In this document: positions 33,411 through 40,800 of the stretch, piece after piece | Numbering within the stretch: the first letter of the stretch is position 1 | How the letters are laid out: each line of letters opens with the position of its first letter | Position numbers and translations under genes: made by a program | The notes under the pieces: generated by a model | Seen by the model: the letters and a program-made list of their open reading frames with translations, nothing else | Databases searched by the model: none | Told to the model about the DNA's origin: nothing | From: Xylographa opegraphella | Taxonomy: Eukaryota | Assembly: GCA_022813865.1 (NCBI GenBank) | Contig: JALDZX010000034.1 | Span: 124,001-188,000 of the forward strand | Direction: 5' to 3' | Length of the DNA stretch: 64,000 bases

Positions 33411-35583
33411 TCATCGTGCCCGCTGTACAAGGTTGTTCCGCGGCCTACTCAAAGGTCGTCCGTCGCGGTCAAACGATGTACTGGTCGGAGTACTTATGCT
33501 GCCTTCCCGACCAGTTTTGCGGCGCTTGAGGCTATCCATTCCATCTCCACCGCTGTTGGGACGGGTGTGCTCCTGATCGTCCTCTTCACGCCCACGTTTG
33601 CCTGAACCGTTGAGGGCAGATGGTGCATAGACAGGCTGTAGAGGTGCGGAGGCATACGCATCGCTGGGATTACCATTCGTGGAACTGCGAGCATCGCTCA
33701 TCACATTGTAGAGGTTGCTCGACGGAGGTGCGCGAGGTGGTGTGTTGTAACCAGGCGCCCATTGTGGCTGTGAGACGGACGAGGTTCGTGGCGTGCCTCG
33801 ACCCGAGCCGTTGGCATGGGGAGATCCGTTGACGGTCTCAGGGGAGAGGTGAGGATGCTCTCCGTGCAACGGCCCGAGGCTCGAACCGGTATTGTAAGTG
33901 TATGGACCACGGTTGGCATTGTAAGCAGCAGTACTGTCATGTGCGTACTCGGTGTCGTGCTCATGTTCTGCTTCCTCCTCACCCGTCCCATGGCCCACTT
34001 GCTCGTTTCCCTGGCTGTGTGTGTATGGATCGGATTTGATGTCTCCGTGTTCCCCGTCGGTTCCCGAGCCGGTTGTCCTCGAAGTTGGTGGACCCATTTC
34101 GTTCTTCATGTATGGGTTCGATTGCATCGGCGGTCCGAATCGGGCGAGATTGTGCTGGGCTATGTTCTGCTGAGAAGGGTACTGCGGTTGTGGCTGCGGC
34201 GCAGCGGAATACATTGGCCTCGACGCATCATACGATTGCTGATTCGAATAAGGTTGCATATTGTGTAGGGAATTCCCTGGCGGTGTAGTGGCCGGGGTGG
34301 TGGGCATGGAACGAGTGTTACTCAGGCCGGTGTCGATCGAGAGTGGCTGCGGTGGTTGGACATGTGCATTCATCTGTTGCGATTCCCAACCGTACGAGCT
34401 TGCTTGATTGCCGATGATGCTTGACGCGCTGGTGGGCGGAGTTGGGAACGTATGCGCCCTGTCCAGACCAGGTCGTCCGACACCCGGGTGGGGAGCGATC
34501 GATGGTGCGGTTTGAGGGTTCATCTGGCCGTTCATCGAGTGATGATGGTGCAATGCGGGTGGCTGCGATCCCGCCGGCCCCAGCAGAGCCTGCTGCTGTT
34601 GTAGTTTGTCTTGCATCTTTCGACGCTCTGCCGCTTGCATCACCAGGTTCGTCCGGTTCGAGTTTGTAGGATGATAAAGTAAAGCTCCAATATTGTGTAC
34701 GAATAATGGATACAAGAGTTCAGTAATCTTCTCTCTATTCGCAAAGTCTAGCGCACGTTCAAACGGAATCCTGCTCCACATCAGGATCACGCACGGAAGG
34801 GAGGAACGAGTCTTCATACCAAACGCCTTTCAGATGCATAGGTCCAATTTTGACCACATGGCGCAGCTTTTCGCTTTTCAATATCCCATCACGGCGCCCT
34901 CGAGTCATGCCAGCGACGTTGAGGAGCTTGGTGCCGTTGATCATGTGATTATCTGCCCGACTTTGTCAGTTGTGTACTGGCGATAGTAAGATGGACCCGG
35001 GGCAACGGCGCGAGATCGTGTAGCTGCATAAATGCAGGGTCGGGTTCCTACCTTCTCGTCGTGCGACGCAGACGCCCTTGGCTTCCACTTGAAAGCACAA
35101 ACTACCCTCGTCTTCCCACAAAGTCGCAGTCACTCGAGGTTTCATCCCTGGTGGAGCATTCTGCCCAGTCGTGTCGTACGTTGTTTGCTGTGGATAAGCT
35201 TGAGCGGGATTGCCATGCGCGCCATAGCTGTGCTGTGTGTGATTTGCGACGGGCATCGCTGGGAATATGTTAGCCACCGTGTGCCGATTCCAATAGATGT
35301 CGAGGGACTTTGTACTTGGCAAGGGAAGTAATTGCGTGTTATTCATCTGGGGAGCTGACGCAGGTTGTCCGGTGCTTTGCGGCGATGTCACTCCGGTCGG
35401 ATACCCATACTGGGTGTATGAAGTGGTTGGCGCGTACGACCCGTGCACGGGTTGCAAAGACGGAGCTTGCTGGTATTGTGGAAAATGTGCCATTCCACCA
35501 CTCGTTTGAGATTGCGGCGCATACGAAGGCCCGCCCGACATGTGGGAGTGCTGCGAGTCTAGGTACGGCTGATTCGGATTCAT
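33411..35583 (-). CDS. stuA: APSES transcription factor StuA/Asm-1; exons 35583-35316, 35258-35052, 34952-34820, 34770-33411 (possible N-terminal extension, see findings)
   Basis: APSES domain [100 protein letters not shown] and [12 protein letters not shown] motifs. Confidence 0.97.
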
Positions 35584-37803
35584 GGCGCCGCTATAGCTCT
35601 CCGCCTCCTGTCCGTACGCCTGCGGATGATGTGAATGGCTGGAGTAGTGAGCAGGGGCCGTCGAATCTTCGGCTTGCACGTGCGGGTGCGACGGTGCCAC
35701 CTGCGCCGCCGGAGATGGAGAAGGGGTCTTCAGACCGATTGGGGGGTTCGCGCTACTGGGATATGAAGATGCGCTGGTCAGGGACGGAGGGTACTGGTTG
35801 CTGCTGTAGTTGGAAGACGAATCCAACGACCCAATGCGCGAGGAGGATGCTCCGGACGAGACGCTGGTAGGATATGTTTGTGGTAAGTGCAGATCCGGCA
35901 ATCGATCACTCGCCAACAGCGGGCGCTGAGCAGCGTGATGATTGTACCACGATATGTCGACAGGGCCTCGGGTGGAAACCTGAGAAATCGACGGGAGCTC
36001 CAGCTTTTCGGTATTGTCTATCAATGGCCGTGAATGACCGGGACGGCCTCTTGCGAGGTGGAGTGGTGCAGGGTCGCTCAATGGAGCACTGGGGCACAAC
36101 CGGACACGGCCCACCCAAGGATGATGTTTTCAATCAAGCGTGCAAGTGCACGGTTGGCGGGAGAATTGGCTGACGGGGTGTGATATCAAGGAAAGAGCTG
36201 TTGAGCGGCTTTGGGGGTTGGTGATATCGAGGGGAGGAATGAGCGGCGAAGCAGTCTGGCTGTTGCACAGAGGATCAGAAGCGGGTTCGTGATACGCAAT
36301 GCGACGCTCGGCCGATGCTGCGGAGCTTGACCAGAATCGTGCAGTTGCTGGAGAACCAGAATGGCAAGGGCGTATGGCTCGTTTCAGGTCATTAAAGAGG
36401 ACAACGCCCCGGGCGGTTTGCTTGTTTCGACGCAGAGCGATGGTGGAGAATGAGCGCGGGTGCGGGGACTGCTTTATCGGGCCAGGCGGAGGTGCATGGG
36501 GGATCCCAGACAAGAGGCTTCTTTGTACTGCGCGTCGAGCGGGTGCTGGCGTATGAAGGTGAAGGAGTATCGTTAAAGAATCGTCAGATTGATCGTTGCG
36601 GAATCGTTGATGGTTGGGAACAATTTTGTTTGCGGCGGTGGGAAGCTTGAGGGAGAGGGATCGTTTCCCTGAAGCGACTAAAACGTCAGCCGAGAGCTAA
36701 ATCAGGCCGTGTTTGGGGGGGTTAGGGAGGTGGGGGGGGGAGAATAACGGGGAGAAACTGGGGTCGTAGAGCTATGCTGGGTTGCTTGAAAACAGGATTT
36801 GAAGAGGGCGATGAAAGAGAGAAAGCTGCGTACCGAGCGAGGCCTCACGGGCGAGCAGTAATCACGCACACAGAAAGAGAGACGATGGGTGAACGACGGA
36901 ACGGGCGAGTGCGAGAGGTGAGCCAGAGAGCCCGAGGAGGTTGGGGAGGAGGAGAGAGAGAGGGAGGGGGGGGGGGTGCGTTGGTTGGTCCTAGCGCCAC
37001 AACTCGCCTGGCGCGAAAAAGACGCTCCGGAGTGTGGGCGACAGCGGTGATAGGATGTCGTGCGTCGGACGCAATAATAGTTATCTTAATATCGCTGGTC
37101 GCTGGACGCGGCGACTGGAAGCCCGAGTCGAGATGGACCGCTGAAGCGTTGGTCGAGCGTGGGCAGACGACGGCGATAGAGGCGATCGAGCGAGTTGGCC
37201 CCGAAGTCAGAACATTATTTGGTCCTCGAGCGCCAGGCGTGTGTTGACGGACGAATGTAGGTACCGTCCAAGGGGGCGTTGGAAGCAGCAGATGCTGCTG
37301 CGGAGCCAATTGGCCGACACGCCGCCCCCAAAAGCTGCCAGAGTAGGGCCTCGAGTGCCGCGATGCCTCAGATTCGCGGTGCAGTGTGCAGTGTGCAGTG
37401 CGCGGTGTGCCGGTGTGCGGTGAGAGCAAGTGGGCGTGAGTGGTAGAAGGGCAAGGCTCGAAAAAAAAAGCTGGACGACGGTTGCGCTGCGCAGTGGCGG
37501 AAGAACGGACCCTTTGTACACAGGACGCAGGATGCGGGACGGCGCGCCAGAGGCAGCAGGGTTGGGGAGGGGAGCCAGCCAGACTCTACGATATCGCTTC
37601 AACGTGAGCACGCCCCCGTCGGCTCTGCGAAAGCGTCCAGCGTCCAAGAGAGAGCGACGGGCGTGGTGGAGGGGAGGGCTAATCCTAGCCCATGCAGCTG
37701 CTCCTTAGGTGCATGTCCTTCCAGGCCTGTAAGTGGTGGCTCCGCAATCGATACTCCGGCATGACCGGGGGGAGGGTTGCGGGCAGCTGGGAGGGGGAAG
37801 GGG

Positions 37804-37805
<2 letters not shown>

Positions 37806-37857
<52 letters not shown>
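37806..37857. repeat. (GA)26 microsatellite in the stuA upstream region
   Basis: Perfect dinucleotide run read directly. Confidence 0.97.
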
Positions 37858-37861
<4 letters not shown>

Positions 37862-40800
37862 GGGGGAAGCAGGAGGCAGGATCGACCAGTCAAACGGCCG
37901 GAAGCGCAAAGGAAGGGCAGCAGAATGGTCTGTGTGCCGTTGCAGCGAGCGAGGAAGGGAAAGGGATAGGGAAGGGAGGCAAGAGCTATGCAGGCTACGG
38001 GAGCGCTGATGATTTCGGTCGTCTTACTGTGTACAAGCGTCGACTTGCGTCTGGGCTGCAGCGGAATCAATCCAAAAACAAGCTGCAGGCAAGCGAGGGA
38101 TGATCGTGATGGACAAGCGTGCGACAGGACTGCCATGATCCACATCGACACGATGATGGCTGCTCGAGCTAGAACGCCGCCCGTGATTACTTCGCGACCC
38201 CGACCAGCCCATCCATCCATCCATTCATCCTCTCGCTGCCTACCACAGTCGATCAACCAAACGGTCGAGTTGATAATCTCCAGCACGATGAACAGGGCAC
38301 GCAACCCTTTCGCCAAAGACCCCTCCCTGCCCCCAGTCCATTCTCGAATATTTCCCTACAGTTGGGGAGAGACACTGGCTCCGGGGTCGGCTTCAGAGGA
38401 GAGCCAGTCAGCGAGGATCGCTGATACTGACCGATGCGACTCTGAGACTTAGGTCCCGAAGCAGGGTGGAACCAATCCACGCCGTTGTGCTCCCTCCCCT
38501 CCCACCCCCCCAGCTTTAGAATACACGCACTACGGCTGTTTCTCCCGCGTACGACGAAGTGCAGAACGACGTGAAGCGGCGTGATTGGCTCTGCCGACTG
38601 CACAGCGGTCAACGTGGAAGGCTGTCCTCGAATGCGTTGGAATGTGACAGGACACGGAGCCGGCGGGCGAGCGAGGCCAGCGCCATTTGACACTGCGTCC
38701 GCCAGGCACCCTTTTTTGACGCTGGCCCGGCGAGCCTTGCCGGTCATCGAAGGACCACCCCCACTTGGACCACTCGTAAGGGACAGCTCAAAGCTGGCGA
38801 GAACTGTTTGCTGCTTTCGAGAATCCAGCCAGCCAAGGCTTGGATGGCCTGAAGACTTGAAAGGAGGGCGGCGCCCACAGACAGGGGATAGAGGGCGATT
38901 GAACCGGGACCGGTTTCCAAACTTCCCCCCCGGAGTCCTTCGTTGGTTCTCGTCCACTACTGTTGACCCTCCCAGCGACAGCACAGATGGATTGGGACGT
39001 CTGTAAACGTTTCTCTCAGTCGGGAGTCCCTATCGAGGACGTCAGATTCCAGGGAACATCCGATTTCATCCTCAGATCGACTGCGCATAAAACAAAACAC
39101 GACTTTAATTTTGGATCTTCGCTATCCCTCACGTCCCCAGTCCGGCTAATACCCCGATGATCACGAAAGAGGAGACAGCGACAGCACGAGCTTCATGACT
39201 CAAGGAGGCATCTGTTTCGGTCTGCGGCAATGCACACGGTGTAACTGTTACTGCCATTCACTTGTATCCCACCCCCATCAGCTGTTCCCGAGCTGTCCCA
39301 CTCTCTTGTAACCTTGGACCCCGTTGCGAGAAGAGGAAAGTGTAACGGTCGGAGCATGAGGAAAGGCCGAGATGCGCAGCAAGCACAGCATGATCGTTGG
39401 AGTTGAGCTTTCGGTGCAACTCCGGAAAGGCATCTTGAACGGTGGCGGGCGGACGAGATTGTGGGACGGGATTGTGGCACAGCACGAAAGCGATAGGCAT
39501 GGATGATGGCTGGCCAGACCTAGCTAGAGACACACACCGATAAGACCTTAAAATAGAAGGGCTGTGAGGAGCAGAGGTTCACAAGCAAGCAGGAGCACCC
39601 GCCTCATGAAATGGTATTATTAATAATGAGATTGAGGTGGTGGTGCGTGGTGCGTGGTGCCAGCTGGGAGCCCGGGCGCTGCTGTATTGTGCGGTGGATG
39701 GGAAGATCTCGCTGGTGGTTGGTCGCGGAGGTTGGGGGGTGGAGATGTGTGTGTTGGCAACCCTCAGAAGATGGCAAGCGAGCGAAGGATTTTGGCTGGC
39801 AGGAGGCGCCCCATCCTTCAGGAATGCGACTACTGTACGGAGTCCTAGAGTCGATTGTGGCCCCGTTCACCGGGTGCCAATAATCGGAGTGTATCAGATT
39901 CCTCGTTCATGCTGTTCCGCAGTCGTGAGTGTGGGGACGTCAATGGCCGTCCTGCGTGAACCGATGAAACACACGCAGGCCTCCAAGCAGCTGCGCCGGA
40001 CCCGGTACTCGATGGGGTACTCCGGGAGCTTTTTCAATGCAGCTTCCAATGTCTCACGCCACGAGCGACGATGTGGATTATCCGGCGCAGCGTTGTAGGG
40101 TGGACCCGTCATCAGAACCTCTCTCATACGTCCTTGATCGCCGGAAGGAATCAATTCATGTGTGGCATTCTTACAGGTGAAATTCCCGTCCGTGATGACG
40201 GCCAATAGTTTTTGGCCAGGTACCGTGGGCGCAGACGCGGTTAATTCTATTGTTTCTCTACTTTGATATCCGGTCATACATGACGAGACTGCAAGCCTGG
40301 CTCCTCGAGGCAGAGCCTCAGTATGGATTGAGGATAGCCGTTGGCAACTCAGTCCTCGACTAGAGCGGTGCATGATGCAGGCGCATGGATGAGACGTTCG
40401 CCATCGCTGTCTATCTGCATCGTCAACCAACCTCGCACCGCACCGCGTCATCGAGAATGGAGTGCTAGAATTCCGTGGACCGGACAGCCATCGCCGCCGT
40501 CATATAATACGTCCTCCTCCGGAGGTTGTTTGGTTCCAACGTATGTATCTACAATGACTGGCCACCCTGACGACTCTGGTCTGTTGCCAATTGACCTTCT
40601 CTCTCTGTTCCTCAGAACCTCTCCCGCCCTTTGGCGGGTCGCCGTTTCGTCGTCCGAGGAATGATCGCTACTTTAGCGTCTTCATTCTGGCAGACCGAAT
40701 TTGCAGAGAGGGGTTGGTGGTCGTTAAATTGGTGGTTGATCCTTGGCAAGTGTGGATGTCTGAAAGCTCGGGCTTCTACCGTCGACGCGTCAATAATTTG

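Follow-up and report, generated by a model that had tools for sequence, protein, structure and literature searches.

A conserved AUG-free N-terminal extension of the fungal regulator StuA, probably translated from a CUG codon

Where does the protein encoded by stuA begin? In fungi, StuA holds a central place in the control of asexual and sexual development, and in many of them also in that of secondary metabolism and virulence. The question is raised by a stretch of 64,000 nucleotides (nt) from Xylographa opegraphella, a lichen-forming Lecanoromycete (assembly GCA_022813865.1, contig JALDZX010000034.1, positions 124,001 to 188,000; hereafter the window), in which the reading frame of stuA continues far upstream of its first ATG. 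An earlier note on this DNA had proposed that a longer StuA isoform is made by near-cognate initiation, and the comparative sequence data presented here support that interpretation. We estimate the probability at roughly 0.8 that a single stuA mRNA carries a conserved, AUG-less stretch of 140 codons which starts with a CUG, and that it yields both a long and a short StuA. All features of the window described below are located on the minus strand, which is the sense strand, and the first coordinate of a codon is accordingly the higher number (table 1).

The stuA frame belongs to a stop-to-stop open reading frame (ORF) at 36129..34966 and stays open for 182 codons (546 nt) 5′ of the stuA ATG at 35583-35581, back to a TGA at 36132-36130. 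The open frame and its terminating TGA had been recognized before and both stand, whereas the length then given, 177 codons, was a small miscount. From base counts, the chance of a frame staying open over 182 codons at the composition of the window is estimated at about 1 in 100. ATG is absent from all sense frames between 35584 and 36391, slightly further than the 36389 reported previously, and the next sense ATGs are found at 36392, 36497 and 37215. According to a script scan, this gap of 809 nt is the longest ATG-free interval on either strand of the entire window, and the next longest ones on the minus strand, of 718 and 478 nt, are its immediate upstream neighbours. Over positions 35584-36389 the dinucleotide expectation is 10.3 ATGs and none is observed, whereas CAT occurs 21 times against 20.4 expected; the avoidance of ATG is therefore strand-specific. 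The 420 nt of the extension itself hold no ATG where 4.3 are expected.

Is this open frame read as protein? A metagenome scan (alignment A1) with the peptide pattern [EGA]KLELPSIS recovered 48 related loci, which together with the window make 49 sequences and 35 unique extension sequences; the 31 sequences that could be aligned by codon fall into 17 lineages differing by more than 22%. Codon choice, the flanks and the remaining approximately 130 codons are unaffected by the pattern used. As the nonsynonymous substitution rate divided by the synonymous one (dN/dS) over all pairs is saturated at synonymous sites (proportion of synonymous differences, pS, about 0.75), close pairs were relied on; between the window and the other loci pS is likewise saturated at about 0.66-0.90, with a proportion of nonsynonymous differences (pN) of 0.25-0.47. 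In the StuA frame pN/pS is 0.07-0.33 in all 18 moderately close pairs, and in the shifted frames it exceeds 1 in every pair that is less than 98% identical. Counting from the CTG at 36003-36001, whose first base is +1, nine close pairs show 59, 43 and 177 differences at codon positions 1, 2 and 3 between +7 and the main ATG, and all nine indels in this interval are multiples of three. In the same pairs the interval from -120 to -13 shows 67, 68 and 72 differences, and its indels measure 11, 11, 3, 3, 3, 1, 1, 1, 10, 10, 2, 1 and 1 nt. Of the unique loci, 32 extend as far as the main ATG, and in each of these the frame of the extension is open. Judged by these patterns of substitution, the extension is protein-coding and is conserved in the StuA frame only. 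This is the outcome of the dN/dS test that the earlier note had suggested, and an absence of codon-level conservation, which it had weighed against its own proposal, is excluded by the pN/pS values, the 59/43/177 distribution and the in-frame indels.

The same measurements bear on the view that the extension is untranslated and owes its conservation to an RNA or DNA element within a long 5′ leader. The region does look like a leader, as it is poor in ATG and is preceded by small upstream ORFs (uORFs), and the extension yielded neither a known protein family nor a solved structure nor a confident fold. With the 140 amino acids (aa) of the extension as query, Pfam returned 0 families and a sequence search of the PDB 0 matches, both at E ≤ 1; the best score in the ESM Atlas, 0.76, was to an ascomycete cluster and is uninformative. 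AlphaFold2 applied to the 776-aa long form of locus L035 (35-row alignment) gave a mean predicted local distance difference test score of 39.4, which was poor even over the APSES domain and hence uninformative on the extension. On the other hand, an element of this kind is hard to reconcile with the dominance of third-position variation, with indels that occur in frame only, with a pN/pS that is low in one frame only, or with a frame that is open in all 32 unique loci. Nor was a conserved RNA structure found downstream of the CTG: RNAalifold over +1 to +84 of 35 loci gave -1.5 kcal/mol, and single-sequence folds of this interval compared with shuffles had a mean z-score of -0.06. The untranslated element is thus strongly disfavoured by the sequence comparison, and we regard it as extremely improbable.

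Conservation is also visible in protein collections. A phmmer search with the 182-aa upstream translation against 1.84 billion representative proteins, a set free of the peptide-pattern filter, returned 37 matches at E ≤ 1e-3 and 21 at E ≤ 1e-10. The LELPSIS block was located by regular expression in 22 of the 37, several more begin inside the extension, and a few are low-complexity matches made of many stretches. The majority consist of short raw ORF calls terminating within intron 1, and as such they testify without bias that the frame between the block and the canonical Met is open. Two word-indexed searches added 20 matches (Aspergillus, Penicillium and lichen metagenome-assembled genomes, with four of the 20 flagged partial) and 29 matches (many Dothideomycetes, further Lecanoromycetes and, among Sordariomycetes, Diplogelasinospora and Colletotrichum). 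The full-length StuA models from both combine the block with a KilA-N domain and come from Eurotiomycetes, Lecanoromycetes, Dothideomycetes and Sordariomycetes. The suggestion in the earlier note that the LELPSISQ block occurs upstream of other stuA genes is thereby borne out, as the block is found before the canonical Met in many StuA loci of Pezizomycotina. The first part of the extension, codons 0-41, has a median pairwise dN/dS of 0.145 over 199 pairs, with synonymous sites largely saturated, and the first 59 canonical codons have a median of 0.156.

If the extension is translated, which codon starts it? The CTG at 36003-36001 had been singled out as the start, with A at -3 and G at +4 (AAG-CTG-G) and exactly 140 codons before the ATG. 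The sequence agrees in each of these particulars, and in the relatives this codon is invariant, has an invariant A at -3 and G at +4 and stands exactly where the coding signal sets in. All 49 sequences and all 17 lineages have CTG at this place, whereas four other conserved Leu columns use three to six different codons each, with CTG in only 7/17, 1/17, 4/17 and 2/15. Among the 35 unique loci the bases at -9 (A), -7 (C), -6 (G), -4 (A) and -3 (A) and all those from +1 to +8 are invariant; the positions that vary are -5 (A 22, G 10, C 3) and -1 (G 25, A 9, C 1), and from +9 onward every third base varies. The in-frame wobble positions -4 and -7 are thus fixed while the second position -5 varies, which reverses what coding sequence would show and is in keeping with an initiation context conserved at the nucleotide level. 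In the 60 block-bearing proteins from all searches the residue after the Leu is Glu in 50, Asp in five and Ala in five. Codons for all three begin with G, so that a change of residue leaves G at +4 intact. Two proteins, one of them the NCBI model P0065 of Venturia nashicola, begin with Met exactly at the Leu position, and other models place a Met one to six codons upstream of it (one in P0064 of Pyrenophora, five in P0040 of Squamulea); these cases are known as proteins only. Taken together, the comparisons make it very likely that the extension is translated from this CUG.

By the same substitution counts, coding begins at the CTG or a few bases earlier and no coding signal is present upstream of -12, since the bias towards position 3 and the in-frame indels are found downstream, whereas upstream the differences are spread evenly and the indels break the frame. 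An alignment of 42 proteins behaves in the same way: similarity sets in abruptly at T-E-K-L-E-L-P-S-I-S, and the parts upstream differ even within a genus. This onset bears on the proposal that translation begins at one or more other near-cognate codons further upstream, instead of or besides the CTG, in which case the protein of the window's clade would include the residues GHSRP. The frame of the window is open for 42 codons before the CTG and contains GTG, TTG and ATA codons, and the element GGTCAYTCRAGGCC, which encodes GHSRP in this frame, varies mainly at in-frame third positions (His CAT 4, CAC 7; Ser TCA 12, TCG 2, TCT 2; Pro CCA 5, CCC 5, CCG 8). However, in 29 of the 35 loci no other near-cognate codon lying upstream in frame combines a purine at -3 with G at +4, and none was found to be conserved in position. 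The even spread of upstream differences over codon positions and the frame-breaking indels point in the same direction, as do loci L018 and L019, in which a 1-nt insertion puts GGTCAYTCRAGGCC out of frame with the CTG and a stop intervenes six codons upstream of the CTG. The nearest upstream in-frame stops elsewhere include those at 11 codons (L044/L045) and 16 codons (L013-L015, L035). An upstream near-cognate start is therefore considered quite unlikely. GGTCAYTCRAGGCC itself is conserved in the window and in nine of 12 related loci aligned, is restricted to the window's clade and is located at -36 to -23 in L001, L002, L011, L013, L016, L018, L020 and L048; it may be a cis element, or it may indicate that initiation occasionally takes place upstream.

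A long form that is real but starts with AUG would need another source of its N-terminus, namely an alternative upstream exon spliced in frame to an acceptor just before the block. Gene predictors often build models of this type, such as five from Penicillium that start with MRLLHHPSLHLS, and the window does have an AG at 36019-36018, within the TAG at 36020-36018 that the earlier note had pointed out. In A. nidulans, stuA is moreover said to have alternative promoters and leader introns. Against such an exon, the N-termini that models place before the block disagree within one genus, and four of the 20 matches in the first word-indexed search are flagged partial. Neither candidate acceptor proved to be a conserved feature: at the positions of the AG, -16 is A in 16, T in eight, C in eight and G in three loci and -15 is T in 12, C in 11, G in six and A in six, while an AG immediately adjoining the CTG is contradicted by 10 of 35 loci in which -1 is not G. 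The missing coding signal upstream of -12 argues in the same way, and the three upstream ATGs of the window open uORFs of only two, seven and two codons. Among the 35 unique loci, none has an in-frame ATG between the nearest upstream stop and the CTG, although three of them reach the contig end first.

Further evidence on this point comes from contigs without introns. Uninterrupted ORFs run from the CTG for 770 aa in L033, 776 aa in L035 and at least 531 aa in L025. In genomic loci the ORF from the CTG breaks after 200-345 aa, and for this reason L025, L033 and L035 appear to be spliced, RNA-derived contigs. The leaders of the intronless contigs are colinear for 845-1322 nt and contain uORFs and in-frame stops; in the spliced contigs L025/L026, L034 and L035 these stops lie 16-85 codons upstream, and no in-frame ATG follows them. 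The splicing of an AUG-bearing exon to the TAG, which the earlier note had named among the outcomes that would speak against it, is unsupported in the relatives, where the AG is not conserved and the leaders are colinear and carry stops. We consider an AUG-started upstream exon very unlikely.

Two observations on these leaders and models deserve to be recorded in their own right. L034 and L035 are intronless contigs from related fungi whose extensions share 92% identity; their leaders are set apart by indels of about 66 and 15 nt and by a stretch of 20 codons just before the block, which could be ordinary divergence or alternative leader processing. The five Penicillium models (P0047, P0051, P0054, P0055 and P0057) have an N-terminus matching the beginning of a uORF that the Penicillium-like locus L028 carries 608 nt before its CTG, and join it to the extension by a predicted intron. 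A common annotation pipeline, to which the locus tags point, may have propagated this N-terminus. As upstream N-termini disagree or are invented, predictors evidently search for any ATG.

The CUG-started long StuA leaves the role of the downstream AUG to be considered. In 32 loci the extension contains 12 ATGs in all frames against 97.7 expected, an approximately eightfold depletion, and 20 of the 32 have none; over the same length downstream of the main ATG there are 286 ATGs against 199.6 expected. This depletion fits leaky scanning, because internal ATGs matter to scanning ribosomes and not to elongating ones. It might be argued that only the CUG-started long protein matters, that the AUG at 35583 is an internal Met and that the short StuA is an artefact of annotation. 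The extension block is as constrained as the canonical N-terminus (the medians of 0.145 and 0.156 given above), and the Met may be conserved for reasons of the protein. However, ATGs are depleted within the extension and not downstream of it, which only scanning ribosomes require, and all 32 loci retain a purine at -3 of the main AUG. In addition, CUG starts are usually inefficient. A long form alone is accordingly unlikely, and it is probable, on the evidence of ATG depletion and start context, that both isoforms of StuA are made.

The following course of events would account for the conserved CUG together with the conserved AUG. Ribosomes would scan the long stuA leader, which holds a few tiny uORFs, and a fraction of them would initiate at the CUG with its A at -3 and G at +4, giving a StuA of 795 aa with the 140-residue extension. 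The remaining ribosomes would leak past the CUG, scan the 420 nt in which AUG is avoided in every frame and initiate at the conserved AUG at 35583, giving the short StuA of 655 aa.

Several points weigh against this CUG-and-AUG reading. The 48 loci were fished by the peptide pattern, so that the nine residues of [EGA]KLELPSIS are invariant by construction, and stuA loci without the block were left unsampled. The lineages are not independent samples, so that counts over them exaggerate how many events there were. In three lineages the extension contains a single out-of-frame ATG. AUG uORFs in another frame overlap the CUG in L013 (-142), L016 (-244 to -193) and L028 (-311); they are not conserved, and they would lower access to the CUG in these loci. 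The third-position variation within GGTCAYTCRAGGCC has a coding appearance upstream of the proposed start, the RNA-derived nature of L025, L033 and L035 is deduced from their absent introns, and no conserved hairpin follows the CUG over +1 to +84 in the 35 loci.

The identity of the gene itself, named stuA in the earlier note, is secured by similarity. The NCBI entry P0082, a hypothetical protein of 660 aa from Xylographa opegraphella, matches a 452-aa query from exon 4 with 100% identity and coverage, and its N-terminal part agrees with the translation of the window; it carries the precomputed Pfam family PF04383 (KilA-N/APSES). In P0016 (E 5e-9) and P0039 (E 8e-9), two homologs that bear the extension, hmmscan also detected KilA-N, and matches are named in their sources 'cell pattern formation-associated protein stuA' or 'apses transcription factor StuA'. 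The introns at 35315..35259 (57 nt), 35051..34953 (99 nt) and 34819..34771 (49 nt) are all of the GT..AG type. The spliced model has no internal stop from either start, and in a single BLASTP alignment residues 1-765 of its 795 match the 776-aa intronless ORF of L035 with 52.6% identity. By the source names and this long alignment, the gene of the window is stuA, orthologous to StuA among the APSES proteins.

The public records of this gene deserve comment. In the P0082 model translation begins at the second in-frame Met (ATG 35541), and intron 1, which is 57 nt long and in frame, is retained as coding sequence, whereas P0083, the model from a sister species, has the canonical Met (MNPNQQ) as its start and splices intron 1 out; the extension is missing from both. 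In view of these differences in start and intron 1, the public 5′ annotation of the window's stuA looks wrong even if the extension is left aside.

Table 1. Coordinates of the stuA features in the window
Feature	Position	Strand	Details
Mini-uORF ATG TTC TGA, 2 codons	37207..37215	-	ATG scan; putative transcript membership
uORF, 7 codons (MHLRLAR)	36474..36497	-	ATG scan
Mini-uORF ATG ACC TGA, 2 codons	36384..36392	-	389 nt upstream of CTG
In-frame TGA stop, nearest upstream of extension	36130..36132	-	42 sense codons before CTG
Clade-specific element GGTCAYTCRAGGCC, GHSRP in frame, 14 nt	36026..36039	-	23-36 nt upstream of CTG
Conserved putative initiation context ACCGAAAAG-CTG-GAGCT (-9 to +8)	35996..36012	-	35 unique loci
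Proposed near-cognate start CTG (CUG) of long StuA	36001..36003	-	GAA AAG CTG GAG in window
N-terminal extension, 140 codons, without Met and without ATG in any frame	35584..36003	-	Purifying selection in StuA frame only
Most conserved extension module, codons 0-41 (LELPSISQV...WYN...RLP.L.LP)	35878..36003	-	Alignments, dN/dS
Second conserved motif GLKTPSPSP, Ser/Thr-Pro cluster	35710..35736	-	A1: K134 and T135 nearly invariant, P136 invariant
Canonical ATG (MNPNQPY...), start of short isoform	35581..35583	-	Met invariant in alignments A1 and A2
stuA gene body	33411..35583	-	Exons 35583..35316, 35258..35052, 34952..34820, 34770..33411; TGA stop 33413-33411

The leader upstream of the open frame has features of its own. 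The context of the mini-uORF nearest to the CTG, TCTTTA followed by ATGA, is common to L001 (-513) and L002 (-538), the two nearest metagenome relatives of the window, and other lineages have one-codon uORFs (an ATG followed by a stop) or a uORF beginning MR at similar distances. The recurrence of such sequences suggests that the leader uORFs are conserved. C-rich tracts at about 36960-36990 and 36720-36750 may belong to the leader or to the promoter, and a long CT/GA dinucleotide repeat at about 37760-37900, approximately 1.8 kilobases upstream of the CUG, gives ORF translations of the types LSLSLS... and RERERE....

What function could the extension have? It may be a regulatory or interaction module of the transcription factor, for which the earlier note had suggested short motifs of the LxLPxI type. 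Our guess would be a disordered regulatory region, with a docking or stability motif at its N-terminus and a cluster of Ser/Thr-Pro phosphorylation sites.

The closest known system is cpc-1 of Neurospora crassa and its homologs in Pezizomycotina (Ivanov et al. 2017; PMC5487733). The non-AUG extension of cpc-1, with a dN/dS of 0.348, overlaps uORF2 and has three conserved near-cognate codons, an ACG in 98 of 100 species, an AUU-type codon in 74 and a CUG-type codon in 77, and its non-AUG initiation has support from toeprints, reporters and ribosome profiling (PMC5487733). Both genes encode transcription factors behind long, uORF-bearing leaders, both have an AUG-less in-frame extension under purifying selection across Pezizomycotina, of similar length (about 180 aa in cpc-1, 140 aa in StuA), and in both the conserved near-cognates have A at -3 and G at +4. 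However, cpc-1 is a bZIP factor and StuA an APSES factor; cpc-1 has three near-cognates, whereas StuA has a single CUG, invariant in every sampled locus, with a sharp onset of coding; and the cpc-1 extension is backed by experiments, whereas that of StuA has been recognized by sequence comparison. PMC5487733 makes no mention of StuA, asm-1 or APSES. The Discussion of the same article refers to IDI-4 of Podospora anserina, a bZIP factor proposed to initiate at CUG. Like StuA, it is a transcription factor from a filamentous fungus whose proposed CUG start is conserved, but there the CUG takes the place of an AUG, whereas in StuA it is proposed in addition to a conserved downstream AUG. Fungal 6-phosphogluconate dehydrogenase, which obtains peroxisomal isoforms by non-AUG initiation (PMC7214817), likewise has a cryptic N-terminal extension with a non-AUG start in the annotated 5′ untranslated region; that extension is a targeting signal on a metabolic enzyme, whereas the one in StuA is 140 aa long, apparently regulatory and located on a developmental transcription factor.

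The stuA gene of A. nidulans reportedly has a long leader with mini-ORFs and is subject to translational control, and studies of it are said to have treated the leader as untranslated and StuA as starting from the first AUG. A literature search, with approximately 1.7 million PubMed Central (PMC) articles and most subscription journals outside its reach, found no paper on an extension of this kind for StuA. It is probably a non-AUG extension of the cpc-1 type, apparently not described before for StuA, and would place StuA beside cpc-1 as a second case of near-cognate initiation that is deeply conserved in a transcription factor of filamentous fungi.

Should the accepted StuA lack about 140 conserved residues, expression constructs that start at the AUG test one isoform only, and deletions or tags placed at the StuA 'N-terminus' would sit inside the protein. 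The module of about 42 residues at the start of the extension would be missing from short gene models that begin at or after the AUG, as the Xylographa models do, and to our knowledge it is also missing from the short coding sequences used in functional studies. Current stuA models are inconsistent in any case: the record for the window starts at a later Met, others invent upstream exons and some are flagged partial.

These results are of interest to fungal developmental biology and to the study of translational control alike. The single invariant CUG is an unusually clean signal, which makes stuA a good test case for start-codon stringency as a factor that shapes development. A broader role can be put forward tentatively, at somewhat less than even odds: across Pezizomycotina, the ratio of CUG-started long StuA to AUG-started short StuA may be set by start-codon stringency and by uORF-dependent scanning. 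This ratio could then be the basis of the translational control of stuA and of the dose-dependent choice between developmental programmes, and the module of about 42 residues could be a regulatory domain that has gone unrecognised.

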